NCBI GenBank assembly: GCA_030682385.1 | Contig: JAUXOG010000104.1 | Location: 24,023-88,022, forward strand | Direction: 5' to 3' | Origin: Bacteroidota bacterium | GTDB lineage: Bacteria > Bacteroidota > Ignavibacteria > UBA10030 > BY39 | Length of the DNA: 64,000 nt | Part shown: piece after piece, positions 13,361-40,285 of the stretch | Layout: the number at the start of each line of letters is the position of its first letter | Numbering within the stretch: position 1 is the first letter of the stretch | Made by a program: the position numbers and the translations under genes | The notes under the pieces: generated by a model | The model's input: only the letters and a program-made list of their open reading frames with translations | Told to the model about the DNA's origin: nothing | Database searches by the model: none

Positions 13361-13399
13361 TACTTAACCATTCAAATCTCAATGTTAGATTCGTCTTTC

Positions 13400-14116: not shown

Positions 14117-14126
14117 GTTTGCTTTT

Positions 14127-18022: not shown

Positions 18023-18042
18023 AATATTGTCCGAACCGTTGA

Positions 18043-18489: not shown

Positions 18490-18558
18490 TGATTATTATT
18501 AGTTTATTTTTTACAAGTTATATTTTCATTGATTTCTTTTTCAATCATAGTTAATCAT

Positions 18559-19911: not shown

Positions 19912-19924
19912 TAAATCAGGTTAA

Positions 19925-22654
19925 TCACAGTTCAGACTTTTCATAGCCTAATTCAATTAAAAATTTATCGAGTTGCGTAGTTTCCTTTTCTCTCTCCGTT
20001 AAAATGGAATGAAGTGGGAGAGTATATTTATTATGCAGGTTTTCTATTGCCAGCAGCAGTTGGCGGCTGTGGGTTTGCAGGTAGCCGTTAATGGTTTGGT
20101 GCAATACTCTGTTCCATCTTTTTAAAATTAGTTGTTTAGCTTCTTCGGGTGTAATGAGCAGCCGTGCCTGGTCAACTAAGTTTTGCTTTTTATCTTTTAT
20201 CTCCTTAATTATTTTTTTGCATTGCTTTAGTTCTTCTTCCAGGGCTGTGTGTTTGGCAATGCGGTTTTCATCGGCTTCTATCATAGCATCAAGGCGCTTC
20301 ACTTCGGAAGCATTTATTTCTGCTTCGGTTTGCAGTGTTGCAATTTCAGCAGCCAGTTTGGGTTGCTTTTTCAATGCTTTTTCATTGGCTTTAATCCGTT
20401 TCTGCAAATTCTTGCATTCTTTGTCTGCTTCTTTGCGTTCGCCTTTCAGTGCTTTTATGCCGTCTTTGTGTTCTTTCAACTCGTCTTTGGGCCATACATC
20501 GTAATCTTCTTCATTCCAAACAACATCTTCCAGTTCGTTCACTTCATTAAAGATGGCTTCAAGTTCTTCTTTTCTTGCTTCGTTGCTTCGCAGTTCTTTC
20601 AGCACATCTGGGAACTGGCTTTCCAAAATTTCATCATCGGGTATCAGTTCGACATTCCATCCGCTGGCAGCTACACTTTTTAAATCAAAATTCAGTTCGT
20701 TCCAATAAGCAGCTAAGGCACCACGGCTTTGGTAATTATCTAAAATGTCTGAACTGTGATTTTTTTGATTATTGTGATTAGTCTGATTACTTGACGCTTC
20801 TTTATCATGGTCATCAAGTGAATCAGATAAATCATAGTTCAGACTATTAGGTGCAATTTTTTCTGTAAATGAATTAGCAAATTTTCGGCTAAGGGCAAAA
20901 ATATTTTTGTTAACGGGGAGTGCTTCAAAATCGGGAACAACTTCATCCCACCATTCAGCCAACAAATCGGTGTAGGCATTTTGTGTGGCTTTTACTGCGG
21001 GGCTTTCATCCAACAGCTTTTTGATGTCTTCTTTTTGCGTGATGGCATCGGTAAATTTCAGGTAGTCGTTTTTCAACGGAGCAAATAATTTTTTACGCAA
21101 ACCTGGGTAAGAAGCAAAAGCATCATTCAAGGCATCTACTTCACTCACAGGAATACCACCTTGCAGGTGTGCATGCACATCGTGGGCTTCAGCCGGTGGG
21201 GCATTATCCACAAACCTGCGTATGTTCAGGTTGTATTCCTCGGCAGCCAGTTCTTCTTTGCTAACGAGTTTGCTGTATTTGTCAATTACTTTTTTGTGTC
21301 GGTAGGTGAAAGCAATTTTTTCGATGTCTTCCTGTCTCAATTTGTTTTGCACCTTGCCTTCTTTGTATTCCCGGTCAGCATTGATGAATAAAACCTTTTC
21401 TCTAAGGTGTGCATCTTTTTTATTTATCACAATCACCGAAGCCGGAATGCCTGTGCCGTAAAACAAAGCAGGCGGCAAACCAATCACGGCTTCTAAATAT
21501 CCTCTTTCAATTAACCATTTGCGGAAGTTGCGTTCGTCGCCACCTCTGAACAACACACCATGCGGCATTACCACTGCCATGCGTCCGTTATTATTCAATG
21601 AGGCAACCATGTGTTGCACAAACATGAAATCGGCTTTGCTTTTTACAGGCATCCAGTAATTGAAGCGTTCTTTAAACTTCATTCCGTCCTTGCTATAGTT
21701 CTGCGAAAAAGGCGGATTGGCAATAACGATGTCAAAAGTTTTCAGTTCGCCTTGTTCAATGTGCAAAGGGTTCATCAGTGTATCGCCATTCACTAAGTTG
21801 CTGTCGTAAATGTTATGAAACAGCAAATTCATTTTGCACAAACTCCATGTAGTTCCGTTTTTCTCCTGTCCGTAAAGTGAAAGATTACGGGCAGAACCGT
21901 AACGGCTTTCCACATAGTTTTTACTTTCAATGAGCATACCACCACTACCCACAGTAGGGTCATAAATTTCCGCATCCTGTGTTGGCTCTAAAATGTTTAC
22001 CAGCAGTCGCACCACTTCGTTGGGTGTGTAGAATTCGCCACCTTTTTTTCCAGCACTGTCGGCAAAATATTTTATCAAATACTCATAAGCGGCACCCAAC
22101 AAATCGGGGAACTCAAGGTTATCATCCGTTAATCTGATTTTATTAAACTCACGAATCAAGTCGCGTAAATCTTCATCGGTAATTTGCTTGTTGTTTTTTC
22201 CAATGCTGCGGTTGAAGTTGATGGATTTTAAAACACCTTCCAGTTTATCGAGGTTTGCATCTTCCAACGCAGCAAGTGCCTTGTTCAGGTGGTCGCCAAT
22301 TTCTTCCTGCAGGTCTTTTATGTAGGAAATTTTTTCACCTTTTTCATTTGCATCCGGGTCGCCGTCTAATTTTCTCCAACGGGCAGCAAGCGGAATAAAG
22401 AAATCGTATTCGGGTGCGTTTTGTTTTTCAAGTTCACCGTAAATCATTTCCGGATCGCTTACACCTCTGCCTTCAACAATTTTTTTCTTTCTTAAATCAC
22501 GGTGCACTTCAAACTGATCGTTCACGCGTTTGAGAAACAACATAGCAATGATGTATTCTTTGTATTCGGAAGCATCCATGTTTCCCCGTAAACTTTCGCA
22601 AGCTTCTTCAAGGAAGGTTTCTAACCGGGAGAGGGAGAGTTTATGTGTTGGCAT
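19925..22654 (-). CDS. hsdM: Type I RM methyltransferase subunit (HsdM, N6-adenine), with a roughly 350-400 aa C-terminal coiled-coil extension (909 aa in total).
   Basis: HsdM N-terminal domain and the VIANPPF catalytic motif. The C-terminal third is a long K/E-rich heptad-like region. Confidence 0.85.
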
Positions 22655-22771
22655 TAAATTAAAAACATTTTAATTTGTGAATTTACAATTATTAAGTTTT
22701 GTGGTTCTTTTCATTATCAGCAACAATACAAAATGTGTCCATGTTAATTTCAACAGGTGTTTATCTACAGA

Positions 22772-22800
22772 AGAAATACGAGGCAGTGCCTCGTATTTCT
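22772..22800. promoter_or_regulatory. 14 bp perfect inverted repeat AGAAATACGAGGCA-g-TGCCTCGTATTTCT between the divergent hsdM and hydantoinase promoters.
   Basis: Read directly in the sequence. Candidate operator or bidirectional hairpin. Confidence 0.4.
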
Positions 22801-22997
22801 GATCTGAATCTTTCAGTGCGAGTGCTATGTAAGATTTTTGTTTCGATTTCCATTTCTTTTGGCCCCATTAAGTTTAATGTTGTAATCTATTTCAATCTAA
22901 CAATTCATTTTGTGAATTTCAAGAAAATTTATAGGGATTACTCCTTTTTTCGGTTTTTGTTTAAATCTCTCAATTTGTCTATATTTACACCATCTTT

Positions 22998-24380
22998 ATG
23001 TCTGTCTTAATTAAAAACGGTCGTGTTGTTACTGCTTCGGATGATTTTCTTGCCGATGTATTCATCCAGAACGAGAAGATTACGAAAGTCGCTGAGAATA
23101 TTTCTCTTGCGACTACAACAGTAATAGACGCAGCCAATAAACTTGTTATCCCTGGCGGTATAGATGTTCACACACACATTGATATGCCTTATGGCGATAT
23201 AAAATCGACGGACGATTTTGAAACCGGAACTATCGCCGCTGCCTTCGGAGGAACAACGACGATCATAGATTTCGCGGTTCAATCGAAAGGACAATCGCTT
23301 TTTGATGCTTTGAATATCTGGAAGCAGAAAGCCGATGGCAAAGCTGTTATCGATTATGGCTTTCACATAATTATAACAGATGCGAACGAGAAATATCTCA
23401 GTGAACTTGATAAAGTTGTTAACGAAGGTGTTACAAGTTTTAAATTGTTCACAGCATATCCCGGCAGATTAATGCTAAACGATTCAGATATTTTCAGAGT
23501 GATGCAACAAGCAAAGCAAAACGGTGCCCTGATAATGATGCACGCTGAGAACGGTTACGTAATTGATAAGTTAATTCAACAGACGCTTGCTGAAGGAAAG
23601 ACCGAACCAATCTATCATGCTTTAACACGTCCGTCTGCGCTTGAGGGCGAAGCAACGAACAGAACCATTGCTCTTGCCAAAGTTGCCGATGTGCCGGTTT
23701 ATATCGTGCACGTTACTTGCAACGAAGCGATTGATGCTATCAAGCAGGCACGAATGCAAGGACAAAAAGTATTCGGCGAAACTTGTCCGCACTACTTGCT
23801 GTTGAGTGAAGATGATTTGAGAAGACCAAACTTTGAAGGTGCGAAGTATGTTCTTTCGCCGCCGCTGCGAGAAAAAAAACATCAGCAAACCCTGTGGGAT
23901 TCGCTAAATGATAATGTTCTTCAAACAATCGCAACCGACCACTGTCCTTTTAACTTCAGACAACACAAAGAGTTAGGGCGGTATGATTTTACCAAAATAC
24001 CGAACGGTGCACCTGGAATCGAGAACAGACTTCATCTCAGTTACGAGTTTGGAGTTAATCAAAAGCGTTTTTCTTTAAACCGGTGGGTCGAATTAGTATC
24101 AACCAACCCTGCAAAGATATTCGGAATGTATCCGCAGAAAGGCGAGATTGCGGCCGGCTGCGATGCCGATATTGTTATATGGAATCCTAACACCGCACAC
24201 ACCATCTCAGCACAAACTCATCACATGCGTGTCGATTATAATATGTTTGAAGGTTTTAAAGTTACAGGAAATGCTGAAACAGTTATTGCACGTGGCGAAG
24301 TAATCGTTGAGAAAAATAAATTTCTAAGTAAGCCGGGTCGCGGTAAGTTTATTAAACGTAATCTTTTCATTAAGAAATAA
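22998..24380 (+). CDS. Dihydropyrimidinase/D-hydantoinase (cyclic amidohydrolase).
   Basis: IPGGIDVHTHIDMPYG metal-binding motif, and the 460 aa DHPase family pattern. Confidence 0.85.
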   Translation: MSVLIKNGRVVTASDDFLADVFIQNEKITKVAENISLATTTVIDAANKLVIPGGIDVHTHIDMPYGDIKSTDDFETGTIAAAFGGTTTIIDFAVQSKGQSLFDALNIWKQKADGKAVIDYGFHIIITDANEKYLSELDKVVNEGVTSFKLFTAYPGRLMLNDSDIFRVMQQAKQNGALIMMHAENGYVIDKLIQQTLAEGKTEPIYHALTRPSALEGEATNRTIALAKVADVPVYIVHVTCNEAIDAIKQARMQGQKVFGETCPHYLLLSEDDLRRPNFEGAKYVLSPPLREKKHQQTLWDSLNDNVLQTIATDHCPFNFRQHKELGRYDFTKIPNGAPGIENRLHLSYEFGVNQKRFSLNRWVELVSTNPAKIFGMYPQKGEIAAGCDADIVIWNPNTAHTISAQTHHMRVDYNMFEGFKVTGNAETVIARGEVIVEKNKFLSKPGRGKFIKRNLFIKK

Positions 24381-24578
24381 TTCAAAATATTTTATGAAAA
24401 AGAAAATGTAAATCATATTATTTTACCACAAAGTATTTACCCTTTGAGAGCGTTGTGCATCCTTGGTGTCCTCTGTGTTTAAATATTATTCTAATTTGAT
24501 CAAACAATAAAAATCTTTCGCCGAAGGCGAATCCGCCTCTGGCGGAAAAATCCCAAATCATAAATCATAAATCTTATT

Positions 24579-25766
24579 ATGTCTCTACCATTATCTAAAA
24601 TTCGTGTTCTTGATTTCACAAGAATCTTAAGCGGTCCTTATTGCACAATGAAGTTAGGCGATATGGGGGCTGAAATTATAAAAATAGAAGCGCGCGGTTC
24701 GGGCGACGATACCCGCTACTGGGCTCCGCCTTATGTCGGAGAGGAGAGCGTTTACTTTTTGAGTGTCAACCGAAATAAACAAAGTATTACACTCGATTTG
24801 AAATCCAAAGAAGGCAAAGAAATCATCAAGAAGTTGATACGCAAGAGCGATATAGTTGTCGAGAACTTCCGTGCGGGTGTGATGGACAAATTGGGTTTCG
24901 ATTATAAATCTGTAAAAAAAATTAATCCTAAAATAGTTTATTGCTCTATTTCTGGTTACGGACAGACAAGTGAACAAAGTCATCAGCCGAGTTTTGATTT
25001 AGTAGTGCAAGGAGAATCGGGGTTTATGGATATCACCGGATTTCCGGATGCGAGTCCGACTAAAGCCGGAGTTTCACTCGCGGATATAGCAGCAGGTCAT
25101 GCAGCGTTTGAAGGAATTCTTCTCGCATTGTTCCATCGTCAGAAAACCGGAAAAGGGCAATACATTGACATCAGTTTGTTGGATAGTTTGATCTCGATGT
25201 TTACGTTTCAATCACAGATTGCATTATCAACAGCAACAACACCGAAACGCAAAGGCAATCTACATCCGACAATCACTCCTTACGAAACTTTCGAGACAAA
25301 GGAGGGTTACATAAACATCGCAGCGGGTAACGAGGGACTGTGGAAAAATTTCTGTAAAGCAATAAACCGGCTTGACCTGTTGAAGATTGAAAAGTTTATT
25401 GTTAATCCCAAGAGAGTTGAGAATCGAGTAGAGTTACAAAAGGAATTGATACCTGTTCTGAAGCAAAAGACAAGCGCCGAATGGTTCAAAATTTTTGCTG
25501 AGCACGATGTGCCCGTTGGAAAAATTAATACGGTGAAGGAAGCTTTAAACTTACCAACCGTTCTCGGCAGAGAAATGGTTATCGAGTTAAACCACTCAAC
25601 AATTGGTAAAATGAAGACCGTTGGTAATCCCATAAAGCTTAGCAGCGTAAAGAGTTACAATTATAAACCTGCCCCCACAATAGGTGAACATAGTGATAAA
25701 ATATTAAAACAACTTGGTTATTCAAAGAAAGAAATTGAAAAATTAAAATCACAGAAAGTTGTTTAG
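24579..25766 (+). CDS. Family III CoA-transferase (CaiB/BaiF/Frc-like).
   Basis: IRVLDFTRILSGPYCTMKLGDMGAEIIKIE N-terminus typical of CoA_transf_3. Confidence 0.85.
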   Translation: MSLPLSKIRVLDFTRILSGPYCTMKLGDMGAEIIKIEARGSGDDTRYWAPPYVGEESVYFLSVNRNKQSITLDLKSKEGKEIIKKLIRKSDIVVENFRAGVMDKLGFDYKSVKKINPKIVYCSISGYGQTSEQSHQPSFDLVVQGESGFMDITGFPDASPTKAGVSLADIAAGHAAFEGILLALFHRQKTGKGQYIDISLLDSLISMFTFQSQIALSTATTPKRKGNLHPTITPYETFETKEGYINIAAGNEGLWKNFCKAINRLDLLKIEKFIVNPKRVENRVELQKELIPVLKQKTSAEWFKIFAEHDVPVGKINTVKEALNLPTVLGREMVIELNHSTIGKMKTVGNPIKLSSVKSYNYKPAPTIGEHSDKILKQLGYSKKEIEKLKSQKVV

Positions 25767-25855
25767 AAAACCAAATCAAAGACTATCTTCAGTTGTTTTA
25801 AATACCGAAGTTTTGTAATTTTACACACATTTTTAATAAAATTTAAGGTTCAAAA

Positions 25856-26686
25856 TTGCTAAATAGTTTTTCATATTATAAACCGAAATCCGAAATTGAA
25901 ATTATTGAAACATTAAAATCTTTTGGAGACGATGCTAAAATATTAGCCGGCGGAACCGATTTGTTAGTTTATATGAAGCAGCAAATTGCAGGTCCGAAAG
26001 TATTGGTCGATATTAAAGGCGTTCCTGATTTTTCTAAAATTGACGTCGACAGTGGAGGCAATCTCATTATCGGAGCCGCTGTAACCTGCAACGACGTAGT
26101 AGAGAATCAATATATCCGAAATCATTTTCCGGTATTAGCGACTGCTGCAAAAACAATCGGGTCTTATCAAATTCGCAACCGTGCAACAGTCGTCGGAAAT
26201 ATTTGTAATGCTTCACCCGCGGCTGATATGGCGGGAGCGTTCCTCGTTTTGGATGCTGTTGTGATTATTGCAACAGAAAAAGGGAATCGTGAAATCCCAA
26301 TTAAACATTTTTTTGTTGGTGTTAAAAAAACATCGCTGCAACAAAATGAATTCGTAAAAGCAATTAAAGTTCCTGCTGATTACAAAGACGCCGAAGCAAG
26401 TTATTTAAAAGCAAGTCGCATTAAAGGACACGACCTCGGCACTTGCAACGCAGCTATGAGTCGCAGCAAAAACGGAAAAATTAAAATTGCAATTGGCTCG
26501 TGCAACATTACGCCGGTTTTACTTCCAGATTTCGACAGCAATAATATTGATTTGGCAAACATATTAACGACAGCGATGAATAGTATAAAACCGATTGATG
26601 ATTTAAGAGGTTCAAAAGAATACCGAAAACATCTCGTCCAAGTTTTTATCAAACGATTATTAAACGGAAAGGGACATAGCCATTAA
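25856..26686 (+). CDS. Molybdopterin dehydrogenase FAD-binding subunit (CoxM/XdhB-like). TTG start.
   Basis: YYKPKS...LAGGTDLLVYMK FAD_binding_5 pattern. Confidence 0.8.
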   Translation: MLNSFSYYKPKSEIEIIETLKSFGDDAKILAGGTDLLVYMKQQIAGPKVLVDIKGVPDFSKIDVDSGGNLIIGAAVTCNDVVENQYIRNHFPVLATAAKTIGSYQIRNRATVVGNICNASPAADMAGAFLVLDAVVIIATEKGNREIPIKHFFVGVKKTSLQQNEFVKAIKVPADYKDAEASYLKASRIKGHDLGTCNAAMSRSKNGKIKIAIGSCNITPVLLPDFDSNNIDLANILTTAMNSIKPIDDLRGSKEYRKHLVQVFIKRLLNGKGHSH

Positions 26687-27161
26687 GACGATAGCAGTAA
26701 CAATCAACGATAGAAGATACAGTAAAAGTGTTTCAGAAAATAGAACATTATTAGATTTTCTCCGCGAGGATTTGTATTTATTAGGTGTAAAAGAAGGATG
26801 CGGAGAAGGCGAGTGCGGCGCTTGTACAGTTTTAATGAATGGAAAACCGGTAAACTCCTGTTTGGTTTTAGCAGTTGAAGCCGACGGAACAATGATTCGC
26901 ACAATCGAAGGCGAATCGAAGAATGGAAAATTGAATCCGCTTCAGGAATCTTTTAAAAAACATCACGCAACACAATGCGGATTTTGCACTCCAGGTGTTA
27001 TAATGTCTGCAACATCACTTTTAGAGCGGAATCAAAACCCGGATGAAGAAGAAATCAAAGAAGCGATTGAAGGAAATTTTTGCAGATGCACCGGTTACCG
27101 GCAAATTATTGATGCGATAGCTGAAGCCGCTACGCTTTTAGAGAGCGAGGTAAAAAAATGA
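26682..27161 (+). CDS. [2Fe-2S] small subunit of the molybdenum hydroxylase (CoxS-like). The N-terminus begins at a non-canonical ATT/ATA codon.
   Basis: IKTIAVTINDRRY...LLDFLREDLYLLGVKEGCGEGECGACTV...CGFCTPG. The conserved N-terminus lies about 30 codons upstream of the first canonical start (TTG at 26772). There is no ATG/GTG/TTG in frame between the upstream stop and 26772. Confidence 0.7.
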   Translation: MKTIAVTINDRRYSKSVSENRTLLDFLREDLYLLGVKEGCGEGECGACTVLMNGKPVNSCLVLAVEADGTMIRTIEGESKNGKLNPLQESFKKHHATQCGFCTPGVIMSATSLLERNQNPDEEEIKEAIEGNFCRCTGYRQIIDAIAEAATLLESEVKK

Positions 27162-29527
27162 ACACTAAAAAAGAATATAAATATATCGGGAAAAGTGTTC
27201 CACGGATTGATGCGGATGAAAAAGTAACCGGACAAGCACGTTATGTTTCTGATATTTCGATGCCCGGAATGCTTCACGCAAAAATGTTAACATCGCCGGT
27301 GGCTCACGCAAAAATAAAAAAGATTGATACATCGAAAGCAAAAGCGTTGGATGGCGTGGTTGCAGTTCTTACCGGTGAAGAGTTAGACTATCATGTGGGA
27401 TTGTATCTTGTAGATAAACGGATTCTTGCCCGCGACAAAGTCCGTTATCAAGGCGAACCTGTAGCTGCGGTTGCAGCCGAAACTTTAGAAATAGCCGAAA
27501 AAGCTATCAAGTTAATCGAAGTGGAATATGAATTGCTCAAACCACTCCTTGATGTTGAAGAATCGTTTAATGAAAAAGAAAATTTAATTCATCCTGATTT
27601 AGGAAATTACAGTCATTTAAAAGCTGCCTTCTTTCCGCAGCCCGGAACTAACATCTGCCACGTTTCAAAAATCCGGAAGGGCGATATTGATAAAGGTTTT
27701 GCAGAAGCCGATGTGATTGTAGAACGTGAATACAATAATCCTTCGGTGCAGCACGTTCCTATGGAAACTCACGGCGCAATTGTTCAGTGGGGTGTTAGTG
27801 ATAAAGTAATGATTTATACAAGTGCACAATCGCCGTTCACCGTGCGAAATCTTTTTTGTTATACTTTTAAATTGCCGCATCAAAAAGTTCGTGTAGTAGT
27901 TCCCTATGTAGGCGGCGGATTTGGAGGGAAAGCCGGAATCCATTTCGAGCCGTTAGTCGGATGTCTTTCGCGCGCGGCGGGGGGCAGACCTGTAAAGTTG
28001 ATTGCCACAAGAGAAGAAGAATACAATACACTTCCGTGTCGCTGCGGACTTAAATTTAAAATCAAAACCGGTTTGAAGAAGAACGGAAAAATTACAGCGC
28101 AGAAATTAGTCCTGCTTTGGAGCGCCGGCGCTTATGCTGATTACGCTGTGAATGTTACGCGGGCTTCGGGATATTCTGCAGGCGGACCCTACTATTACGA
28201 AAATCTTTGCACTGATTCATACACCGTTTATACAAATCAGGTTTTCGGAACTGCATATCGTGGATTCGGACACGTCGAATTATTCTGGGGATTAGAGCGT
28301 CACATGGATTTGTGTGCCGATAAAATTGGAATAGATCCCTATGAATTCAAAAAAATAAATTTACTCAAACCCGACAACACAACTGCGACAGGAGAAATTG
28401 TAACCGATTCATCGGGCAGTGTACGCAAATGTTTAGATGCTGTAATAAAAGAAATTAATTGGAGCGGTCATAAAACTAACGAAGAAAAAATAACGGAAAT
28501 TAAATCGGGAAAAGTTCGCGGCAAAGGATTTGCCGTTTTGCACAAGGCGCCCGCTATGCCGACCAATACATCGAGTTCATGTGTAATTAAGATGAATGAG
28601 AATGGTTCCGTAATTTTGAATGTCTCTGCAACTGATTACGGCAATGGTACTTACACGCCATTAACTCAAATTATTGCTGAAGAGATGGATATTCCGTTAT
28701 CGAAAATACATGTAGCATTTGAAACCGATACCGACCGTGATCCATACGATTGGCAGACAGTCGCATCGAGATTTATGCCGATGGGTGGCAGGGCTGTCAT
28801 TAATGCTTGTAATGAATTGAAGAAAAAGATGTCTGAAGTTGCGGCAAAAGTTTTTGAGTGTTCGCAGGATGATTTTATTTTTGAAGATGAAAAAATAATT
28901 CTTAAAAACAATCCAGAAAAATTTATTCCGTACGAAAAATTAGCAACCGGATATGTCTTCCCGAATGGAAATGCAATTGGCGGTCCGCTGATTGGAGTTG
29001 GCGTTTACATTGCTGAAGGTTTGACGAATCTTGATAAAGAAACCGGGCAGGGTTTGCCGGCTTTCAATTGGACTTTCGGCGCTCACGGTGTTGAAGTTGA
29101 AGTCGATGTTGAAACAGGCGAGTTCACTGTTTTGAAAATAGCTTCTGCGCTGGATGTTGGAAAGGTTATGAACGAAGCATCGTTGAAAGGACAACTTATC
29201 GGCGGTGTGGTTCAAGGTTTAGGTACTGCAATTTGCGAGAGATACGTTTACAGCAGCGACGGACGACTCTTAAACAAATCTTTTACCGACAATAAAATAC
29301 CGACTGCGAAAGATATTCCAAATGTTTTTGTTCCGATTTTTATTGAAACTCCGCACGATAAAGGAGCTTACGGTTCACGGGGAGCCGCTGAACATCCGAT
29401 GATTTCTGTCGCACCCGCAATCGGAAATGCTTTGAAAGATGCTTTAGGAATTGAGTTGACTGAGATGCCTATTCGTTTCGAGGATGTTTGGTCGGCAATG
29501 CAAAAAGAGAAGACTCTTGTTGGTTAA
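27158..29527 (+). CDS. Molybdopterin-binding large subunit of a xanthine-dehydrogenase/aldehyde-oxidase-family hydroxylase.
   Basis: 789 aa with Ald_Xan_dh_C/C2 patterns (for example GGGFGGK and the AYRGFG region). ATGA overlap with the FeS subunit. Confidence 0.85.
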   Translation: MNTKKEYKYIGKSVPRIDADEKVTGQARYVSDISMPGMLHAKMLTSPVAHAKIKKIDTSKAKALDGVVAVLTGEELDYHVGLYLVDKRILARDKVRYQGEPVAAVAAETLEIAEKAIKLIEVEYELLKPLLDVEESFNEKENLIHPDLGNYSHLKAAFFPQPGTNICHVSKIRKGDIDKGFAEADVIVEREYNNPSVQHVPMETHGAIVQWGVSDKVMIYTSAQSPFTVRNLFCYTFKLPHQKVRVVVPYVGGGFGGKAGIHFEPLVGCLSRAAGGRPVKLIATREEEYNTLPCRCGLKFKIKTGLKKNGKITAQKLVLLWSAGAYADYAVNVTRASGYSAGGPYYYENLCTDSYTVYTNQVFGTAYRGFGHVELFWGLERHMDLCADKIGIDPYEFKKINLLKPDNTTATGEIVTDSSGSVRKCLDAVIKEINWSGHKTNEEKITEIKSGKVRGKGFAVLHKAPAMPTNTSSSCVIKMNENGSVILNVSATDYGNGTYTPLTQIIAEEMDIPLSKIHVAFETDTDRDPYDWQTVASRFMPMGGRAVINACNELKKKMSEVAAKVFECSQDDFIFEDEKIILKNNPEKFIPYEKLATGYVFPNGNAIGGPLIGVGVYIAEGLTNLDKETGQGLPAFNWTFGAHGVEVEVDVETGEFTVLKIASALDVGKVMNEASLKGQLIGGVVQGLGTAICERYVYSSDGRLLNKSFTDNKIPTAKDIPNVFVPIFIETPHDKGAYGSRGAAEHPMISVAPAIGNALKDALGIELTEMPIRFEDVWSAMQKEKTLVG

Positions 29528-30398
29528 TAATCAAATAGAAATAGCTTCATATTTAAATTCAATTCTTTCTAAAACCAATAATAGATTCTTTAACATACAT
29601 TCTATTTTTAATAAAGCTGTAAATTTTTATGACGGAGAAATGTTATTAACTTTTACTTCACCCGATGTGCAGTTATCTCCAACGAATATTGTTTTCAACG
29701 AGAGTCATTTGTTTAATTCTATTCATAATATATCACAAAATTCTGTCTGTGAATTAAACTATCCGATATTGAGTTTCAATTCTAGATATGGCGAATTTAG
29801 TGTTTCGCTTGAAACATGCGGTGTTGTGAAGACTGAAATCGAGACATATCATAAACTTTCGGAAACAGATATTGAACTATTCAAGTCGAATGTTTTCAAA
29901 GTAATCGATAATCGGAACAGCATACTAAATATTTATCATCATCATCAAACAGAAGATGCTTTGATGGAGAAGTTAAAAATTATCACACTTTCGATTCAGG
30001 AGAGTGTAACTGCAAACGAAGTAGATTATTTCAGAAGAGGAGTGAAAAAACTTTTAGGACTTGGGGCAGGATTGACACCTGCAGGCGATGATTTTGTGTA
30101 TGGACTTTTAGCCGTGTGGAAAACATTCGGTGGCGGCGGAATATTTAAAAAGGAATTAGAAACATTATTAGTTGAAAATAAAAATGAAACCGGAATAATC
30201 AGTTACAATATGTTGAATGCACTTATTAAAAATCATATCTACCTTCCTCTTAAAAATTTGTTTCGACAAATCAATAGCGGGAAGGAATACACGAGGGAAC
30301 TATCGGAGATTGCATCGTTCGGTGCAACTTCAGGGGCAGATATGATTGCAGGTGTATTGTTCGGATTAGAAAATCAGGAATATAAAATTGAAGCATAA
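29520..30398 (+). CDS. DUF2877-family protein (AllH/YlbF-like component of oxamate carbamoyltransferase). The start is uncertain (TTG 29520, ATG 29484 or ATG 29640).
   Basis: GLGAGLTPAGDDFVYGLL motif characteristic of DUF2877. Gene order DUF2877 - FdrA - DUF1116, as in E. coli ylbF-fdrA-ylbE. Confidence 0.6.
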   Translation: MVNNQIEIASYLNSILSKTNNRFFNIHSIFNKAVNFYDGEMLLTFTSPDVQLSPTNIVFNESHLFNSIHNISQNSVCELNYPILSFNSRYGEFSVSLETCGVVKTEIETYHKLSETDIELFKSNVFKVIDNRNSILNIYHHHQTEDALMEKLKIITLSIQESVTANEVDYFRRGVKKLLGLGAGLTPAGDDFVYGLLAVWKTFGGGGIFKKELETLLVENKNETGIISYNMLNALIKNHIYLPLKNLFRQINSGKEYTRELSEIASFGATSGADMIAGVLFGLENQEYKIEA

Positions 30399-31953
30399 AA
30401 TTATAATCAAAAAAAATTCTTACTACGATTCAGTCAGCTTGATGCAATTGTCGGATAAAGCAAAATTGTTGCCCAACGTTCTTGATGCTGTTATATCGAT
30501 GGGCACAGAGACAAATATAAATTTTTTAAAAGATATAGATTTGTTCGATGGTCATTTGGATACAGCGGGACCGAACGATTTAGTGATAGCAATTCGGGTT
30601 GAAGACGAACGAGCACTTGAGAGTTCATCGAAGTTAATCGAAAATTTATTAAACCAAAAAGAATCTTCTGAACAAAAAGCGTCTGAAGATAAACCGGTTT
30701 CGTTTGATTATACGCTGCGGAAAAATGCGGATGCGAATATGGTGCTGGTCTCAATTCCGGGCGAATATGCTTATTACGAGTCGAAAAAGGGACTTATTGC
30801 AGATAAACACGTGATGATTTTCAGCGATAATGTAAGCGTTGAACAGGAAATTCAGCTAAAAGAGATGGCGGTTTCTAAAGGTTTGCTGCTGATGGGCCCT
30901 GATTGCGGAACGGCGATAATTAATGGAGTGCCGCTGGCTTTTGCAAATGTTATTCCGCAAGGTCAGATTGGAATCGTCGGAGCTTCCGGAACCGGTAGTC
31001 AACAAGTTAGCAGTTTGATTGCAAGGATGGGTTCGGGGATAACTCAACTTATAGGAACAGGCGGCAGAGATTTATCGGAAGCTGTCGGCGGGAAAATGAT
31101 GCTGCTTGGAATTGATGCGTTGAATGAAGATCCAAAAACAAAAGTAATCGTGTTGATTTCGAAACCGCCCGCAGAAAGTGTAATGGAAAAAGTTTTAGCA
31201 TCAGCATCGAAGTGCAGTAAGCCGGTTGTTGTTTGCTTTTTAGGTGGAAGAAAAGATGTAATTGAAAAATATAAATTAATCGCAGCCGATAATCTTGAAG
31301 AGGCAGCATTAAAAGCTGTGCAGCTTGCACCGGGTAAGACTATTGGAGGTTACTCTTCTGAAAACGAATTGTCCGCCACAGGCGGATTAGCCGAAATTGA
31401 AAAAGCGAAAATGAATTCAAACCAAAAATACATCCGTGGTTTGTATGCGGGCGGAACGCTTTGCGATGAATCCATAATTTATCTGCGTCAAATATTCGGA
31501 ACAATTTATTCCAATACGACAATCGACGCTGGGACGAAACTTACCGACAGCCGTATTTCAATGAGGGATACAATTATCGACCTCGGTGATGAGGAATTTA
31601 CATAAGGCAAATGTCACCCGATGTTTGAGCCGTCGTACAGACAATTGCGTTTGCTGAACGAAGCAAAAGATTCTGAAGTTGCTGTTATTTTGCTCGATAT
31701 AGTTTTGGGATACGGTTCGCACGAAGACCCCGCCGGCGCAATGCTCGAAAGTATAAAACAAGCTAAAGCAGAGTTTGAAAAACGTGGCGGCTATCTTTCG
31801 GTGATTGCTTCCGTTTGCGGAACTGAAGAAGACCCGCAAGTTTTATCCGCACAAGAAGCAAAACTTAAACAAGTTGGCGTAATCTGTATGCCGAGCAATT
31901 ATCAGGCAGTAAAGTTAGCGGCAAAGATCAAGGAAATTGTTTTAAAAAAATAA
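30388..31953 (+). CDS. fdrA: FdrA (AllF)-like CoA-binding/succinyl-CoA-synthetase-alpha-like protein, interrupted by an in-frame TAA at 31603-31605. It is annotated as one gene made of two in-frame ORFs (30388-31605 and 31621-31953).
   Basis: N-terminus IIKKNSYYDSVSLMQLS...VISMGT...GPNDLVIAIRVE resembles E. coli FdrA. The downstream ORF continues FdrA-like sequence (GKCHPMFEP...LLDIVLGYGSHEDPAGA...SVCGTEEDPQ) in the same frame, with no RBS of its own. Confidence 0.65.
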
Positions 31954-31965
31954 TGATTTTATATC

Positions 31966-32070
31966 ATCCCTAAAGGGATTATAAATATTTTGTCTCTAAA
32001 GAGACTGTCCCAAAGGGACAGAATATTTATAAAAAGATGGAATAGAAAACAAAAAAGTCCCTTTAGGGAC
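31966..32070 (+). repeat. Array of four short stem-loops (ATCCC-TAAA-GGGAT, GTCTC-TAAA-GAGAC, TGTCCC-AAA-GGGACA, GTCCC-TTTA-GGGAC). The middle two are enclosed by a 9 bp ATAAATATT / AATATTTAT outer stem.
   Basis: Read directly in the 157 bp spacer between the fdrA-like gene and the DUF1116 gene. Confidence 0.5.
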
Positions 32071-32110
32071 GGAATAATAATCGTGATAAAATAAATTAAC
32101 AATCAAAATA

Positions 32111-33511
32111 ATGTTACAAAAAATCGAAGAATTATTCTCAAATAAACTATCGGTAATAAATTTGGGAATCGAGTCATTCTCTGCCGACTTGCAATCGCAA
32201 AATGTAAAATCGATACATGTTAGATGGAAGCCGCCGGCATCTGGAAATAAAGAGTTGCTAAATCTTTTATCTGCACTTTATACTGATGGAGTAGAATCCG
32301 CAAACCGGAAGGTTCTTGAAATCATCGCTAACGGTCATCCGAAACTTATCGGTTTAGGGATTGCTAAAGAAGTTATTCCGAATTTTACCGAGAAAACAAT
32401 TTTACACGCCGGTCCACCGATAACTTGGGAAAATATGTGCGGACCAATGCGGGGCGCCGTAATTGGCGGGTTGATATACGAAGGTCTTGCCAAAGATGTT
32501 GAAGCCGCTGAAAAAATTGTATCAACTGAAATTACTTTTTCACCCTGCCATCACTTCCATACAGTCGGACCGATGGCTGGAATTGTTACCGCCTCGATGC
32601 CGGTTTGGATTGTGAAGAATGATGCCTATGGGAACTTAGCTTATGCAACAATGAACGAAGGACTTGGAAAAGTTCTGAGGTTCGGGGCTTACGGTACGGA
32701 AGTTATACAACGATTAGACTGGATGCGCGATGAATTGTATCCAATCTTAAAACAGTCGTTAGACATAAAAGGTGAAATCGATCTGCGAATTTTAATTTCA
32801 CAAGCACTTCAAATGGGGGATGAATGTCATAACCGGAATAAAGCTTTCACATCACTTTTCCTTCGTGAAATCGCACCGGCAATCGCACGGACTGATTTTT
32901 CAAACGAACAAAAGGCAAAAGTTCTTGAGTTCATACATTCAAACGACCATTTCGGTTTAAACTTATCGATGCCTGCGAGCAAATCTATTATGGAAGCGGC
33001 TGAGGGGATCGAAAATTCTACGATCGTTACAACGATGGCGCGTAATGGAACTGAATTCGGAATTCGTGTTGCAGGATTAAAAGGCAAATGGTTTACAGCA
33101 AAATCGCCGAAAGTGCGAGGACTATATTTCCCCGGTTACACAGAAAACGATGCAGCACTCGACCTTGGCGATTCGGTGATTACCGAGACGTCAGGTATCG
33201 GCGGGTTCGCTATGGCTTGTGCACCGGCGATAGTCGGCTTCGTCGGAGGCAAAGCTTCTGATGCTCTCGACTATTCGCAACAAATGTATCAAATAACTTT
33301 ATCGGAGAGTAAACATTTTCAAATTCCAGCTTTGAATTTTCGGGGAACAGCTACGGGCATCGATATACGCAAAGTAATTGAAACCGGAATCTTACCGATA
33401 ATTAACACAGGCATTGCACACAAAAATGCAGGCGTCGGGCAAGTGGGCGCAGGACTTGTAAACCCCCCGATGGAATGTTTTGAAAAAGCATTACAAAATT
33501 TTAAAAAATAA
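32111..33511 (+). CDS. DUF1116-family protein (AllG/YlbE-like component of oxamate carbamoyltransferase).
   Basis: 466 aa with the characteristic motifs (for example the HAGPPI...GPMRGAVIGGL...SPCHHF region). Follows the FdrA-like gene. Confidence 0.6.
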   Translation: MLQKIEELFSNKLSVINLGIESFSADLQSQNVKSIHVRWKPPASGNKELLNLLSALYTDGVESANRKVLEIIANGHPKLIGLGIAKEVIPNFTEKTILHAGPPITWENMCGPMRGAVIGGLIYEGLAKDVEAAEKIVSTEITFSPCHHFHTVGPMAGIVTASMPVWIVKNDAYGNLAYATMNEGLGKVLRFGAYGTEVIQRLDWMRDELYPILKQSLDIKGEIDLRILISQALQMGDECHNRNKAFTSLFLREIAPAIARTDFSNEQKAKVLEFIHSNDHFGLNLSMPASKSIMEAAEGIENSTIVTTMARNGTEFGIRVAGLKGKWFTAKSPKVRGLYFPGYTENDAALDLGDSVITETSGIGGFAMACAPAIVGFVGGKASDALDYSQQMYQITLSESKHFQIPALNFRGTATGIDIRKVIETGILPIINTGIAHKNAGVGQVGAGLVNPPMECFEKALQNFKK

Positions 33512-33540
33512 AAAACCTAAAACGAACTAAAGGAAACAAA

Positions 33541-34320
33541 ATGAAAATAATTGATTTAACACAACGACTATCAGTAATGACACCGGCTTGGCCCACTTAT
33601 GAACCGTTGAAAGTGTATTTCTTTAAACGACTTTCTTCTAACGGTGCGAACGGACAAATCATCAGTACGAGCAATCACATCGGAACGCACATGGATGGCG
33701 AAATCCATTTCCACACCGCCGGAAGAACAATCGGTAATCAGCCGATTGAAGATTTTGTCGGTGCCGGCGTTGTCGTTGACATCTCCGACATAATGGGAGA
33801 TTACGATATTTACACATCGAAGATGCTGATGGAGCGTGCTGATATTCGCAAAGGCGACATCTTGATTATTAATACCGGCTACCATAAATATGCGTGGGAT
33901 CAACCTGAAGCTAACGAGATACGATATTTTTGCAAACATCCCGGTCCCGCAAGTGAGTTTGTTGAATGGTGCGAAGAGATGCAATTCAAATGGATTGGTG
34001 TTGACTGTGGAAGCGCCGACCATCCGATGAATACGATTATCAGAAAATGGTCGGAAGATTTATACGGATTGGCTACGGAAGCTTCGGAACACATGAAGAA
34101 AAAATATGGTAAGACGCTTGAAGAACTTTTTCCGAAAAAAGATTATCAGCAAATGCACTTTAAACTTTTCCCGAAGAAAATAATTCATGCAGAAAATATT
34201 GGCGGCGATATTAACCTATTATCCAACCAAAGAACTCACATCGGTGCGTTTCCGTGGCGGGCGATTGAACTCGAATCCTGCATCTGCCGGATTGTTGCGT
34301 TCCCCGATATAAAAGAATAA
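33541..34320 (+). CDS. Cyclase-family metal-dependent hydrolase (kynurenine-formamidase-like, PF04199).
   Basis: SNHIGTHMDGEIHF (HxGTHxD) cyclase motif. Confidence 0.7.
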   Translation: MKIIDLTQRLSVMTPAWPTYEPLKVYFFKRLSSNGANGQIISTSNHIGTHMDGEIHFHTAGRTIGNQPIEDFVGAGVVVDISDIMGDYDIYTSKMLMERADIRKGDILIINTGYHKYAWDQPEANEIRYFCKHPGPASEFVEWCEEMQFKWIGVDCGSADHPMNTIIRKWSEDLYGLATEASEHMKKKYGKTLEELFPKKDYQQMHFKLFPKKIIHAENIGGDINLLSNQRTHIGAFPWRAIELESCICRIVAFPDIKE

Positions 34321-34325
34321 TATCA

Positions 34326-35648
34326 TTGGTCGAAAATTTATCCACAAAAAATTTTGCCGTTGAACCTGAAGCCAATTCTCTAAAACGAATTGCTGATAAA
34401 CTTCGAAGCGGTGAGCTATCTTTAAAATCATACATCGATCAGATTCAAAAAAGATTTGAACTTGTAGAACCGCACATCAAAGCTTTTCTTGAAGAGCCAA
34501 ATCGTTTCGAAAGATTGCACCGGGAAGCCGAACAACTTGAAACGGAATTTGATAAACAAAGGGAGCTCCCGCTGCTTTTAGAAATTCCCGTTGGCATTAA
34601 AGATTTATTTCATGTTGAAGGTTTCGAGACGAAAGCCGGAAGTAATTTACCGTCAGATATTTTTAAATCGCCGGAAGGACAAGCTGTAAAAGCGCTCAAG
34701 TCTGCCGGTGCTTTAGTCTTAGGAAAAACTGTAACAACTGAGTTTGCATATTTTGCACCGGGACCAACCCGCAATCCGCATAATCTCAATCATACACCCG
34801 GGGGTTCATCGAGCGGCTCTGCTGCTGCTGTTGCATCAGGACTCACTCCGCTGGCGTTGGGAACGCAGACAATCGGATCGGTAATCAGGCCGGCAGCTTT
34901 TTGCGGAGTTGTTGGCTTCAAACCAAGCCAAAACCGCATTGCTACCGACGGAGTTGTGCCGTTTTCGCCAACTGTTGACCAAATTGGCTTCTTTACTTCT
35001 GATGTCGAAAGCGGTGAATTTGCTGCTTCGGTTTTGTGTGAAAAGTGGATAACTGTGGGTAAAGTTGATAAGATTAAGTTGGGGATACCTGAGGGGGCAT
35101 ATCTCGAAGAAACTTCCCCGGAAACATTAACACATTTTTGGGCAGTCGTAAAGCGATTGGAAGATACAGGTTTAGAGATTGTGCGAATGGAAGTGATGAA
35201 AAATTTTGAGGAGATAGTTCATATTCACAACAAATTGATAGCTGCTGAAGCGGCAATTGTTCATCAAAATTGGTTTGAAAAATATTCGCATTTGTATAAT
35301 CCGAAAACTGTCGAGTTGATATTGAAAGGACAAAGTGTAAAAGAGAATGAATTAAGAGATTGTAAAAACAATCGCGCTCATTTTCGTTCGGAATTAATTG
35401 AGATAATGAATCGCAACAATATAACGGCTTTCATAACACCTTCGACAGTTGGTCATGCACCTTTCGGATTGGATTCAACAGGTGATCCGATTATGAATTT
35501 GCCGTGGACATTTGCAGGATTGCCTGCGATAAATTTACCGGTTGGCAAGTTTGCAAACGGACTTCCATTCGGTTTGCAGGTTGTGGGAAATTACTGGAAA
35601 GATGAGGAATTGTTGAAAATTGCATCTGTAATTGAAACTAAAAAATAA
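34326..35648 (+). CDS. Amidase-signature family amidohydrolase. TTG start.
   Basis: GGSSSGSAAAVASG amidase-signature motif and K...S...S triad context. Confidence 0.8.
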   Translation: MVENLSTKNFAVEPEANSLKRIADKLRSGELSLKSYIDQIQKRFELVEPHIKAFLEEPNRFERLHREAEQLETEFDKQRELPLLLEIPVGIKDLFHVEGFETKAGSNLPSDIFKSPEGQAVKALKSAGALVLGKTVTTEFAYFAPGPTRNPHNLNHTPGGSSSGSAAAVASGLTPLALGTQTIGSVIRPAAFCGVVGFKPSQNRIATDGVVPFSPTVDQIGFFTSDVESGEFAASVLCEKWITVGKVDKIKLGIPEGAYLEETSPETLTHFWAVVKRLEDTGLEIVRMEVMKNFEEIVHIHNKLIAAEAAIVHQNWFEKYSHLYNPKTVELILKGQSVKENELRDCKNNRAHFRSELIEIMNRNNITAFITPSTVGHAPFGLDSTGDPIMNLPWTFAGLPAINLPVGKFANGLPFGLQVVGNYWKDEELLKIASVIETKK

Positions 35649-35753
35649 GCTACTTATAAATTTCGTGAGTACCCAATATTCTTTGTACTCCTGACTTCCG
35701 CACCTTTTTTTAAAAAACTAAAAATCTTTCTATATAACATACTACAAACATTT

Positions 35754-35896
35754 GAGTCGCCTACGGCGACCTACGGACTCGATTCTAATAGATGTCTGTA
35801 GAATATGAAAAATAAATAATACCGACTCCATTAGGAGTCGAATGTTTGTAGAAAGAAACAAAAAAAAATACCGACTCCAGCGGAGTCGAATGTTTT
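35754..35896. repeat. Three small hairpins sharing a GAGTC/GACTC core. Two are copies of a roughly 30 nt unit, AATACCGACTCC-(loop)-GGAGTCGAATGTTT, at 35819-35848 and 35868-35896.
   Basis: Read directly in the 440 bp spacer downstream of the amidase gene. REP-like or terminator-like. Confidence 0.45.
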
Positions 35897-36089
35897 ATTG
35901 AAACCCCGCAGTTGGTTTAATTTTTTTCAAGTGCCAACAACGCTTCATATTTTTTGCGAGGGAGTATCACTAAATCATCTTCTTTGATATATTTCTTGGG
36001 AATCGTTATAAGTGTCATTTTGCAATTCATAAATAAAACAATTATCTTGAAAACGAATTAATTGAATTTCAAACCAAATTTTTTCCCTT

Positions 36090-40071: not shown

Positions 40072-40285
40072 TAACTTTCTCGCACCCTTCTTCGATTGCT
40101 TGTTGTATCAATTCTAATTCATCTGGTGAAATTTTGCCGGTGAATGATAGTAAGGACTTTCCCGCTACACCTGTTTGTTTGCATAGAGCGAGTGTGCGGA
40201 TAAACTCTAGCACTTGTCGTTGCTGTTCAACGGACATTTGCAGTAATTGGTTCTCTATCTCTTCTGGGATCACATGATCGCCCAT
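40055..40285 (-). CDS. Type II antitoxin partner of the PIN toxin (76 aa).
   Basis: Small acidic protein immediately upstream of, and overlapping, vapC. Confidence 0.6.
   Translation of the reverse strand: MGDHVIPEEIENQLLQMSVEQQRQVLEFIRTLALCKQTGVAGKSLLSFTGKISPDELELIQQAIEEGCEKVIADEW

Follow-up and report, generated by a model that had tools for sequence, protein, structure and literature searches.

An operon-like catabolic cluster of anaerobes combines an AllFGH-type carbamoyltransferase with a molybdenum hydroxylase and a cyclase-family hydrolase and may degrade pyrimidines

Main

We analysed a 64,000-nucleotide stretch of DNA (64 kb; the window) from a Bacteroidota genome of the class Ignavibacteria (contig JAUXOG010000104.1, positions 24,023 to 88,022), and within it the forward-strand region 22998-35648, in positions of the window. 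This region is an operon-like catabolic cluster whose core is formed by a molybdenum (Mo) hydroxylase, an AllH-AllF-AllG-type carbamoyltransferase and a cyclase-family metal hydrolase. It very probably serves the breakdown of a ureide or heterocycle other than allantoin and is built around the AllFGH-type enzyme. At a probability of roughly 50%, we further propose that uracil and/or thymine is oxidized and its ring opened, and that carbamoyl phosphate, as a source of ATP, and malonate are released. Gene identities, linkage, motif conservation and purifying selection were computed, and from their context we infer every substrate and reaction.

The list of open reading frames (ORFs), together with Pfam and NCBIfam searches, gave eleven co-directional ORFs that represent ten genes, with allF split in two. 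The order is dihydropyrimidinase, family III CoA-transferase, FAD, 2Fe-2S and Mo subunits of the hydroxylase, AllH, AllF (FdrA), AllG, cyclase and amidase. The original prediction, made from the letters of this DNA and a list of its ORFs, had placed the genes that it named correctly and seen that they run in one direction, but it had counted nine of them; it had also overlooked an in-frame TAA in allF and the non-canonical start of the 2Fe-2S gene. Its family assignments (DUF2877, FdrA, DUF1116 and the others) were borne out by the Pfam and NCBIfam profile searches. All cluster genes are under purifying selection, with pairwise ratios of non-synonymous to synonymous substitution (dN/dS) of 0.04-0.23 for every gene relative to L001, an Ignavibacteria relative described below.

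22998-24380, + strand: dihydropyrimidinase/D-hydantoinase, 460 aa (Amidohydro_1; TIGR02033 at 632 bits, cutoff 393)
24579-25766, + strand: family III CoA-transferase, 395 aa (CoA_transf_3, PF02515, 430 bits)
25856-26686, + strand: FAD subunit of the Mo hydroxylase, 276 aa (PF00941, FAD_binding_5, and PF03450, CO_deh_flav_C)
26682-27161, + strand: 2Fe-2S subunit, ~159 aa (PF01799, Fer2_2)
27158-29527, + strand: molybdopterin (Mo) subunit, 789 aa (PF01315, PF02738 and PF20256; Ald_Xan_dh_C and MoCoBD_1/2)
29484-30398, + strand: AllH-like (DUF2877) subunit, 304 aa (PF11392, 68.7 bits)
30388-31953, + strand: AllF/FdrA-like subunit, interrupted (CoA_binding and Ligase_CoA; NF004760 at 384 and 102 bits on either side of the stop)
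31603-31605, + strand: in-frame TAA in allF, within the motif DxFTxG[RK][PA]HPMI[DE]P
31954-32110: allF-allG spacer with four short hairpins
32111-33511, + strand: AllG-like (DUF1116) subunit, 466 aa (PF06545, 326.6 bits)
33541-34320, + strand: cyclase-family metal hydrolase, 259 aa (PF04199, 115 bits)
34326-35648, + strand: amidase-signature amidase, 440 aa (PF01425, 241 bits)

The core is conserved in anaerobes of about ten phyla

The E. coli genes fdrA, ylbE and ylbF encode the oxamic transcarbamylase (OXTCase) AllFGH, for which phosphorolysis of the N-acylurea oxalurate is established (PMC11326118), in agreement with what the original prediction had stated. In the window three OXTCase-type subunits are adjacent in the order H-F-G. 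AllG is 48% identical to its E. coli counterpart, the two pieces of AllF 39% and 36%, and AllH 24%, to the C-terminal part. The first 56 residues of the window AllG (32111-32280) are the counterpart of the C-terminal end of the E. coli AllF protein, with residues 3-56 matching AllF 502-554, and this piece of about 55 residues has moved between allF and allG. In some phyla it is a separate ORF of 59-63 aa (L082 8459-8638; L084 2676-2867), and in Sphaerochaeta it lies inside a fused AllF-AllG protein (for example L033 8246-11377).

A search of a species-level genome collection with AllG returned at least 435 relatives. We retrieved 80 loci, called and clustered their ORFs and annotated the recurrent families; six further loci were found through the cyclase and chosen regardless of AllG. 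The closest AllG relatives were in Ignavibacteria metagenome-assembled genomes (MAGs), at 98% in L001, 95% in L002, 76-78% in L004 and L005 and 73% in L006. The full order from hydantoinase to amidase was kept in L001 and L006 and, from the CoA-transferase onward, on the shorter contig of L002, whereas L004 and L005 had neither hydantoinase nor CoA-transferase.

Gene-neighbourhood comparison across genomes, a check that the original prediction had itself proposed, revealed a recurrent core. AllH, AllF and AllG were always together in the 80 loci, the cyclase directly followed allG in 47 of them, and 31 of these 47 had the three Mo-hydroxylase genes. The 47 cyclase-type loci were from Ignavibacteria, Chloroflexota (Anaerolineae), Spirochaetota, Bacillota (Lachnospiraceae, other Clostridia and Sporomusa), Thermotogota, Bacteroidota and Desulfobacterota (one deltaproteobacterium); AllF and AllG are fused in Sphaerochaeta. 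Five of the six cyclase-seeded loci adjoined AllG and AllF, with AllH called in two of the five and the Mo enzyme in three, and these loci added Hydrogenedentota, Elusimicrobiota and Riflebacteria. The AllH-F-G-cyclase core occurs in anaerobes of about ten phyla. A carbamate kinase gene was linked in 28 of the 80 loci, and PucR-family regulators were found in 13 cyclase loci.

The cyclase does not occur with the hydrolases of sister allHFG clusters

The cyclase-family protein retains the metal motif HxGTHxDxxxH, and its predicted model (predicted local distance difference test score, pLDDT, 85.7) has the kynurenine formamidase/isatin hydrolase fold (template-modelling (TM) score 0.60-0.67) at 14-21% identity to solved members. 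It missed the kynurenine formamidase equivalog TIGR03035 (49 bits; cutoff 223) and belongs to the broader PF04199 only. Its subfamily is tight, comprising 2881 proteins at E <= 1e-20 with 61-66% identity across phyla, which automatic database annotation names only 'cyclase family', 'kynurenine formamidase' or 'arylformamidase'. We propose this protein as the ring opener, which would convert barbiturate to ureidomalonate. PF04199 includes isatin hydrolase and dihydrophloroglucinol cyclohydrolase, the latter of which opens the reduced ring of phloroglucinol, a carbocyclic analogue of barbiturate (PMC10470551). Some cyclase homologues are nearly double in length, at ~445 aa (440-454; L005, L006, L007, L016, L019, P0005-P0007 and P0019, with a further example in L087 that adjoins AllF and AllG), and may contain a tandem or extended domain.

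In 20 loci allHFG occurred without the cyclase and with an AtzD-family amidohydrolase or an isochorismatase-type hydrolase instead. The AtzD-type protein of Moorella, the sole representative tested, passed the cyanuric acid amidohydrolase equivalog (591 bits; cutoff 360), and sequence clustering grouped the other carriers (Enterocloster, Hungatella and Flavonifractor) with it. Cyclase and AtzD/isochorismatase hydrolases were together in none of the 47 loci, which suggests that the cyclase fills the slot that produces the ureide substrate of AllHFG. On a neighbour-joining (NJ) tree of AllG, built without bootstrap and rooted on the long branch of E. coli AllG, the sequences largely sorted by hydrolase context.

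Genes for handling a carbon skeleton were nearly confined to the cyclase loci: relative to AtzD/isochorismatase loci, the counts were 14 versus 1 for the amidase, 4 versus 0 for CN-hydrolase, 9 versus 0 for the CoA-transferase, 3 versus 0 for Mmd-type decarboxylase and 15 versus 0 for a thiolase/DUF35 module. This distribution fits a product that retains carbon, as cyanurate or biuret would leave none. The permeases divided in the same way. NCS2 permeases were UraA-like in 9/9 cyclase-type clusters tested and PbuX-like (xanthine) in 5/5 AtzD-type clusters, and two Sporomusa permeases passed the uracil-permease (UraA) equivalog at 699 and 661 bits (cutoff 477). In Sporomusa rhizae (L053) a gene for a methyl-accepting chemotaxis protein (3538-5589) lies between the uracil permease and PucR; it has a weak Cache match, below the Pfam cutoff, and may mediate chemotaxis towards the substrate.

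Molybdenum hydroxylase

The motifs GGGFGGKAG, AYRGFGH and GARGxxEHPMI, the last of which contains the catalytic Glu, were conserved in the Mo subunit across cyclase-type clusters. In the window protein and its orthologues Ala follows GGGFGGK, at a position that, judged by the motif, is probably that of the substrate-binding Glu802 of xanthine dehydrogenases (bovine numbering). All three NCBIfam Xdh equivalogs were missed: XdhA scored 519 bits (cutoff 780), XdhB 185 (310) and XdhC 161 (217). Hydroxylation of uracil to barbiturate by a Mo hydroxylase is the known activity of uracil/thymine dehydrogenase (EC 1.17.99.4), and we propose the molybdopterin subunit as a candidate for this enzyme.

The closest solved structure to the Mo subunit was 4-hydroxybenzoyl-CoA reductase (1rm6_A; 6e-104). 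We considered this identity and rejected it: the alpha (HcrA) model scored 499 bits (cutoff 995) and the beta model 122 bits (cutoff 405), the latter matching in two separate stretches only, and the FAD subunit, at just 276 aa, is not of the size that the enlarged beta subunit with its Fe-S insert would have.

No canonical start precedes the conserved N-terminus of the 2Fe-2S subunit; the first one, TTG at 26772, would remove about 30 conserved residues. The gene probably starts at an ATT at 26682 that overlaps the stop of the FAD-subunit gene (cATTAAg). Comparison of frame and conservation found the ATT context kept in L001 and L006, and an ATG in L004.

CoA-transferase, amidase and the link to malonate

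We propose that the family III CoA-transferase is an acyl-CoA:malonate (dicarboxylate) CoA-transferase. It fell below all NCBIfam equivalog cutoffs, including those for Frc (296 bits; cutoff 504), which the original prediction had taken as its type, and YfdE (313 bits; cutoff 522). The enzymes nearest to it, SUGCT, YfdE and mesaconate-type proteins, are all dicarboxylate CoA-transferases; the best solved relative is SUGCT 9br7 (8e-98), and identity is 36% to YfdE and 31% to Frc. The same gene is found in Anaerolineae and Sporomusa clusters.

For the amidase, a putative malonamidase, the best solved relative was malonamidase E2 of Bradyrhizobium (MAE2; 1ock; 5e-50), aligned nearly full-length, over residues 53-405 of 412. 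The two share the motif GS[VI]IRPAA (Ser-Val-Ile-Arg-Pro-Ala; GSVIRPAA in the window), which presumably is the Ser-x-x-Arg variant of malonamidase E2 whose Arg158 binds the substrate carboxylate. The amidases encoded in Anaerolineae and Clostridia clusters are of a different subfamily.

Genes for MmdA and the beta subunit of a Na+-dependent decarboxylase lie inside the cluster in Sporomusa rhizae (L053), a Sporomusa MAG (L025) and Alkalispirochaeta (L015). A gamma-like subunit was also found in L015 and, as a weak match below the Pfam cutoff, in L053, which in addition has a biotin carrier. The sixth cyclase-seeded locus, L085, encodes a full set of genes for a Na+/biotin malonate decarboxylase (OAD_beta, biotin carrier, MdcA-like protein, acyl carrier protein, two carboxyltransferases, MadH, MdcG and CitG). 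Immediately upstream of this set are a cyclase orthologue that shares 76-78% identity with the Sporomusa proteins and, after it, a gene for an M42/M20 peptidase-type hydrolase (whole arrangement 10001-20334). There were no AllFGH genes within 10 kb on either side.

The dihydropyrimidinase missed the allantoinase (AllB) equivalog (292 bits; cutoff 358), and its orthologues were confined, among the loci examined, to L001 and L006, that is, to Ignavibacteria versions. It is a lineage-specific accessory gene. The original prediction was right that a hydantoinase is present, but it is the cyclase that is conserved as the trio's ring-opening partner. We speculate that dihydropyrimidines or cyclic imides enter from the side through the hydantoinase, or that it forms a reductive branch for redox balance.

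Proposed route and alternatives

Because UraA-like permeases, Mmd/malonate decarboxylases and an MAE2-like amidase occur with this type of cluster, we read its pathway as leading from uracil or thymine to malonate. The Mo enzyme would hydroxylate C6 of uracil or thymine to give barbiturate or 5-methylbarbiturate, and ring opening by the cyclase-family hydrolase would produce ureidomalonate (N-carbamoylmalonamate), which, as oxalurate is, is an N-acylurea. AllHFG and phosphate would then yield carbamoyl phosphate and malonamate, in a reaction analogous to that of the E. coli enzyme on oxalurate. A carbamate kinase encoded elsewhere in the genome could convert carbamoyl phosphate to ATP, CO2 and NH3, and the malonamidase-E2-like amidase could release malonate and NH3 from malonamate. 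The family III CoA-transferase would form malonyl-CoA (or methylmalonyl-CoA), and malonyl-CoA would be decarboxylated by an enzyme encoded elsewhere.

Several observations weigh against this proposal. The substrate assignments for this cluster type come wholly from gene context, and the PucR-type regulators and XdhA-like best matches are also compatible with a purine substrate. The nearest solved structure of the Mo subunit is that of a reductive enzyme, which leaves even the reaction direction uncertain. The MAE2 match of the amidase is only ~15 bits above that to GatA (174 versus 159 bits). In the window itself allF is interrupted, the dihydropyrimidinase has no role in the proposed route, and permease, regulator, carbamate kinase and decarboxylase are all missing. 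Cyclase-type clusters of Lachnospiraceae have no Mo hydroxylase and carry cytosine-deaminase-like and TRZ/ATZ-type amidohydrolases instead. In 15-16 cyclase-type loci the amidase/CoA-transferase genes are replaced by a module that our model leaves unexplained, consisting of an SCP-x-type thiolase, a DUF35/OB_ChsH2 protein and a protein of ~233-251 aa without a Pfam match. Its carriers are Sphaerochaeta (L030, L033, L038-L042 and L045), other Spirochaetota and Riflebacteria; loci L012, L013, L047, L056, L071, L079 and L084 have it too, with the thiolase also in L083, and in Thermotogota (L017-L019) only the ~233-251 aa protein follows the cyclase. Finally, the only characterized AllFGH acts on oxalurate (PMC11326118).

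That last point is also where an oxalate route begins. A hydantoin-like, parabanate-like or purine-derived ring would give oxalurate, AllHFG would release carbamoyl phosphate and oxamate, and the amidase and CoA-transferase would lead through oxalate to oxalyl-CoA, much as the original prediction had proposed for the later steps. Besides oxalurate being the sole proven substrate, the route could draw on the adjoining hydantoinase, on YfdE, an acetyl-CoA:oxalate CoA-transferase, and Frc as near-equal best matches of the CoA-transferase (313 and 296 bits), and on isatin hydrolase, a cyclase-family enzyme that opens a five-membered alpha-keto lactam resembling parabanate. We nevertheless consider it decidedly improbable. 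The window and all 86 related loci were free of oxalyl-CoA decarboxylase (Oxc) homologues, related clusters encode biotin/Na+-type decarboxylases for (methyl)malonyl-CoA or malonate, the amidase is malonamidase-like and the permeases are UraA-like. Furthermore, the hydantoinase is no conserved part of the module, and E. coli AllG is only 48% identical to the window protein and falls outside its clade as the NJ root. Gene context thus favours the route from pyrimidines to malonate over that from oxamate to oxalate. Still less probable, in our estimate, is a purine pathway, with a xanthine/urate-type dehydrogenase as the Mo enzyme and a purine-derived ureide as the substrate of the cyclase and AllHFG. 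In its favour, the three subunits have XdhA, XdhB and XdhC at or near the top of their NCBIfam matches, PucR regulators accompany 13 cyclase loci and some Lachnospiraceae clusters contain 8-oxoguanine-deaminase-like genes. Against this, the Xdh cutoffs were missed widely (519 versus 780 bits for XdhA), GGGFGGKA has no Glu where xanthine dehydrogenases are expected to have theirs, and there are no imidazole-ring enzymes, uricase or allantoin genes; xanthine-type permeases accompany AtzD-type and not cyclase-type clusters, and a malonyl-type end product is incompatible with purine carbon skeletons.

Allantoin genes were absent from the window, where the E. coli AllB query matched only the dihydropyrimidinase, at 30% identity, by tblastn. 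An allantoin or purine operon was rejected as an identity for the cluster on this absence and on the missed Xdh cutoffs, and the original prediction had likewise seen no allantoin operon here. It had argued for an N-heterocyclic substrate other than allantoin, and the trio is indeed accompanied by a hydroxylase and ring-opening hydrolases. The same enzyme logic of hydroxylation, ring opening to an N-acylurea, phosphorolysis and amide hydrolysis could apply to another heterocycle, such as a substituted pyrimidine (6-aminouracil or 4,6-dihydroxypyrimidine) or a triazine, or to a C-C-cleaving, retro-Claisen opening that yields acetylurea. In favour of this are the deaminase-type amidohydrolases of several clusters, the unexplained thiolase/DUF35 module and the Lachnospiraceae versions without a Mo enzyme; cyclase-family enzymes can also cleave C-C bonds of cyclic 1,3-diones (PMC10470551). 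We regard such a substrate as unlikely, although less so than oxalurate or a purine, because the UraA-equivalog permeases, Mmd/Mad decarboxylases and MAE2-like amidase fit conversion of uracil/thymine to malonate/methylmalonate most simply.

The allF reading frame is interrupted in this genome

The allF frame, broken in the window, is intact in L001, L002 and L004-L006. The two pieces cover positions 4-384 and 386-493 of the NCBIfam FdrA model. The counterpart of the TAA is AAA or AAG (Lys) in L001, L002, L004 and L005 and AGA (Arg) in L006, and TAA differs from a Lys/Arg codon by one base. Within the same motif the window has Cys where the others have Pro or Ala, and Phe in place of an Ile that 76/76 homologues share. 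The exact 405-aa truncated product was not on record in a database look-up. Protein identity to L001 jumps at the stop: AllH and the N-terminal part of AllF are at 83-84%, the rest of AllF, together with AllG and the cyclase, at 97-99%. An independent Logan contig (L089), identical to window positions 31632-35914 and the only contig with an identical AllG, begins 27 nt after the stop.

The TAA is either a nonsense mutation or an artefact of chimeric assembly; unless it is an assembly error, the carbamoyltransferase step may be broken in this genome. A cluster in decay, with a real stop and this step lost, appears somewhat doubtful to us but must be taken seriously. It would account for a TAA where five relatives have Lys or Arg, for two more odd substitutions within eight codons of a nearly invariant motif, and for a 64-kb window without carbamate kinase, permease or regulator. 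Yet the N-terminal part of allF has a dN/dS of 0.19 relative to L001, within the range of all the genes, every other gene is intact, and the stop coincides with the switch in similarity to L001 and is followed 27 nt later by an independent assembly break, both of which are typical of assembly junctions in strain mixtures.

The spacer between allF and allG contains four hairpins, TCCCTAAAGGGA, TCTCTAAAGAGA, GTCCCAAAGGGAC and GTCCCTTTAGGGAC, which are found nowhere else in the window. About 93 nt of this spacer are missing in L001; in L002 it is present and longer.

Flanking genes and window-wide searches

The genes that flank the cluster are unrelated to it, with a restriction-modification system immediately upstream. 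The features outside the cluster were as follows.

1-6600 and 49580-54658: tryptophan/aromatic biosynthesis (TrpD-like protein, DAHP synthase, PALP enzyme) and trehalose synthesis (GT20, TreT-like)
14127-22654, - strand: type I restriction-modification system (hsdR, PD-(D/E)XK protein, hsdS, and hsdM of 909 aa), with a YgjP-like metallopeptidase gene in the same interval
35823-35888: CGACTCC-N3/4-GGAGTCG hairpin in two copies 49 nt apart, after the amidase gene
36090-36722: deoxynucleoside kinase gene, which follows the cluster here and likewise in L001 and L002
39527-39649: 41-residue copy of the C-terminus of the deoxynucleoside kinase, 83% identical, 2.8 kb further on
39676-40285, - strand: PIN-toxin/antitoxin pair, adjoining the kinase C-terminal copy

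The restriction-modification system is missing at the equivalent position in L001, where synteny begins exactly at the hydantoinase start, which indicates that the system is strain-specific. The kinase C-terminal duplicate near the PIN pair looks like an insertion scar. A protein with a type IX secretion system (T9SS) tail is also encoded downstream of the cluster, and the remainder of the window is housekeeping. The hairpin pair at 35823-35888 may be the operon end, a bidirectional terminator or a small repeat. In a promoter and terminator scan the counts were near the shuffled expectation, with terminator-like sites modestly above it, and the only hairpins of note in that scan were in the allF-allG spacer and the region after the amidase.

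As the original prediction had stated, the window has no carbamate kinase: tblastn with E. coli AllK and with one cluster-linked carbamate kinase gave no match in the whole of it. Homology searches of the 64-kb window for NCS2 permease, PucR, Mmd, AtzD, CN-hydrolase and thiolase were likewise negative. Rfam gave zero matches in 22400-36300 at E <= 1 and zero at gathering score across the whole window, in which no transfer RNA genes were found.

Discussion

The cluster belongs neither to the E. coli AllFGH/AllK branch nor to the classical oxidative pyrimidine pathway. With the former (PMC11326118) it shares three homologous subunits and, presumably, phosphorolysis of an N-acylurea to carbamoyl phosphate and an amide. 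It differs in gene order, which is H-F-G rather than F-G-H-K, in an F/G boundary shifted by ~55 residues, and in having no allB, allC, allD, allE or allK linked in the window. The window trio is linked instead to a Mo hydroxylase, cyclase, amidase and CoA-transferase, and its predicted substrate is ureidomalonate rather than oxalurate; E. coli AllG lies outside the clade of the window AllG when it roots the NJ tree.

Pyrimidines are broken down by three or four recognized routes: reductive, Rut, URC and a little-studied oxidative one. The classical oxidative pathway, of Rhodococcus and Mycobacterium, uses uracil/thymine dehydrogenase (EC 1.17.99.4), barbiturase (EC 3.5.2.1) and ureidomalonase (EC 3.5.1.95), and we know of no gene assigned to uracil dehydrogenase. 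Barbiturate and ureidomalonate as proposed intermediates and malonate as the end product would be common to that pathway and ours. In our proposal, by contrast, the ring opener would be a cyclase-family metallohydrolase, the window having no AtzD-family barbiturase, phosphorolysis of the ureide to carbamoyl phosphate, and from there to ATP, would replace its hydrolysis to urea, and the hosts are strict or facultative anaerobes.

Other systems resemble parts of the cluster. The AtzD- or BiuH-linked allFGH(K) clusters of Moorella, Enterocloster, Hungatella and nitrifiers (PMC12625717) have the same scaffold of AllHFG, carbamate kinase, PucR and NCS2 permease, with a ring-opening or ureide hydrolase adjoining the trio. 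The AtzD/isochorismatase clusters differ in their PbuX-like permeases and, one amidase aside, in having no amidase, CoA-transferase or decarboxylase genes. The report on nitrifiers describes allFGHK co-located with biuret genes and mentions neither the cyclase/Mo type nor a link to pyrimidines (PMC12625717). Kynurenine formamidase, isatin hydrolase and dihydrophloroglucinol cyclohydrolase (PMC10470551), of a family that opens rings and amides, share the fold and the His/His/Asp/His metal motif of the cyclase, which nevertheless forms its own tight subfamily, at only 14-21% identity to any solved member. The reductive uric acid cluster of E. coli and Clostridia (XdhD-YgfM, YgfK, SsnA, HyuA, YgeW and YqeA; PMC12507026) follows the same plan in anaerobes: a Mo enzyme is joined by amidohydrolases that open rings, among them a hydantoinase, and by a carbamoyltransferase with carbamate kinase for ATP. 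Its carbamoyltransferase YgeW is unrelated to AllFGH, however, and the window has no counterparts of YgfK, SsnA, YgeX or YgeY; the paper that describes it mentions neither the cyclase nor AllFGH (PMC12507026). MAE2 of Bradyrhizobium, with its near full-length alignment and shared motif, scores moderately above GatA as a relative of the amidase.

The original prediction did not recognize the gene combination as a described pathway, and our full-text literature search, with most subscription journals outside its coverage, found no published description of the cluster. We tentatively suggest, at somewhat lower confidence than the conversion itself, that it represents an undescribed ATP-yielding anaerobic oxidative pathway for pyrimidines that is spread over about ten phyla.

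If the proposal is true, the cluster would supply genes for the orphan uracil/thymine dehydrogenase and, in the cyclase family, a barbiturase non-homologous to the known one. The AllFGH class, so far tied to oxalurate, would come to include ureidomalonate and to stand for general N-acylurea phosphorolysis, and functions could be given to the 2881-protein cyclase subfamily and to most AllFGH homologues outside enterobacteria. Pyrimidine breakdown would be tied to Na+-pumping decarboxylation of malonate or methylmalonate, and uracil or thymine could provide many anaerobes with ATP and a Na+ gradient via carbamoyl phosphate and malonyl-CoA. The carriers seen so far include gut Lachnospiraceae, Sporomusa, Sphaerochaeta, Anaerolineae and Ignavibacteria, with Sporomusa rhizae DSM 16652 and Sphaerochaeta halotolerans among those in culture.

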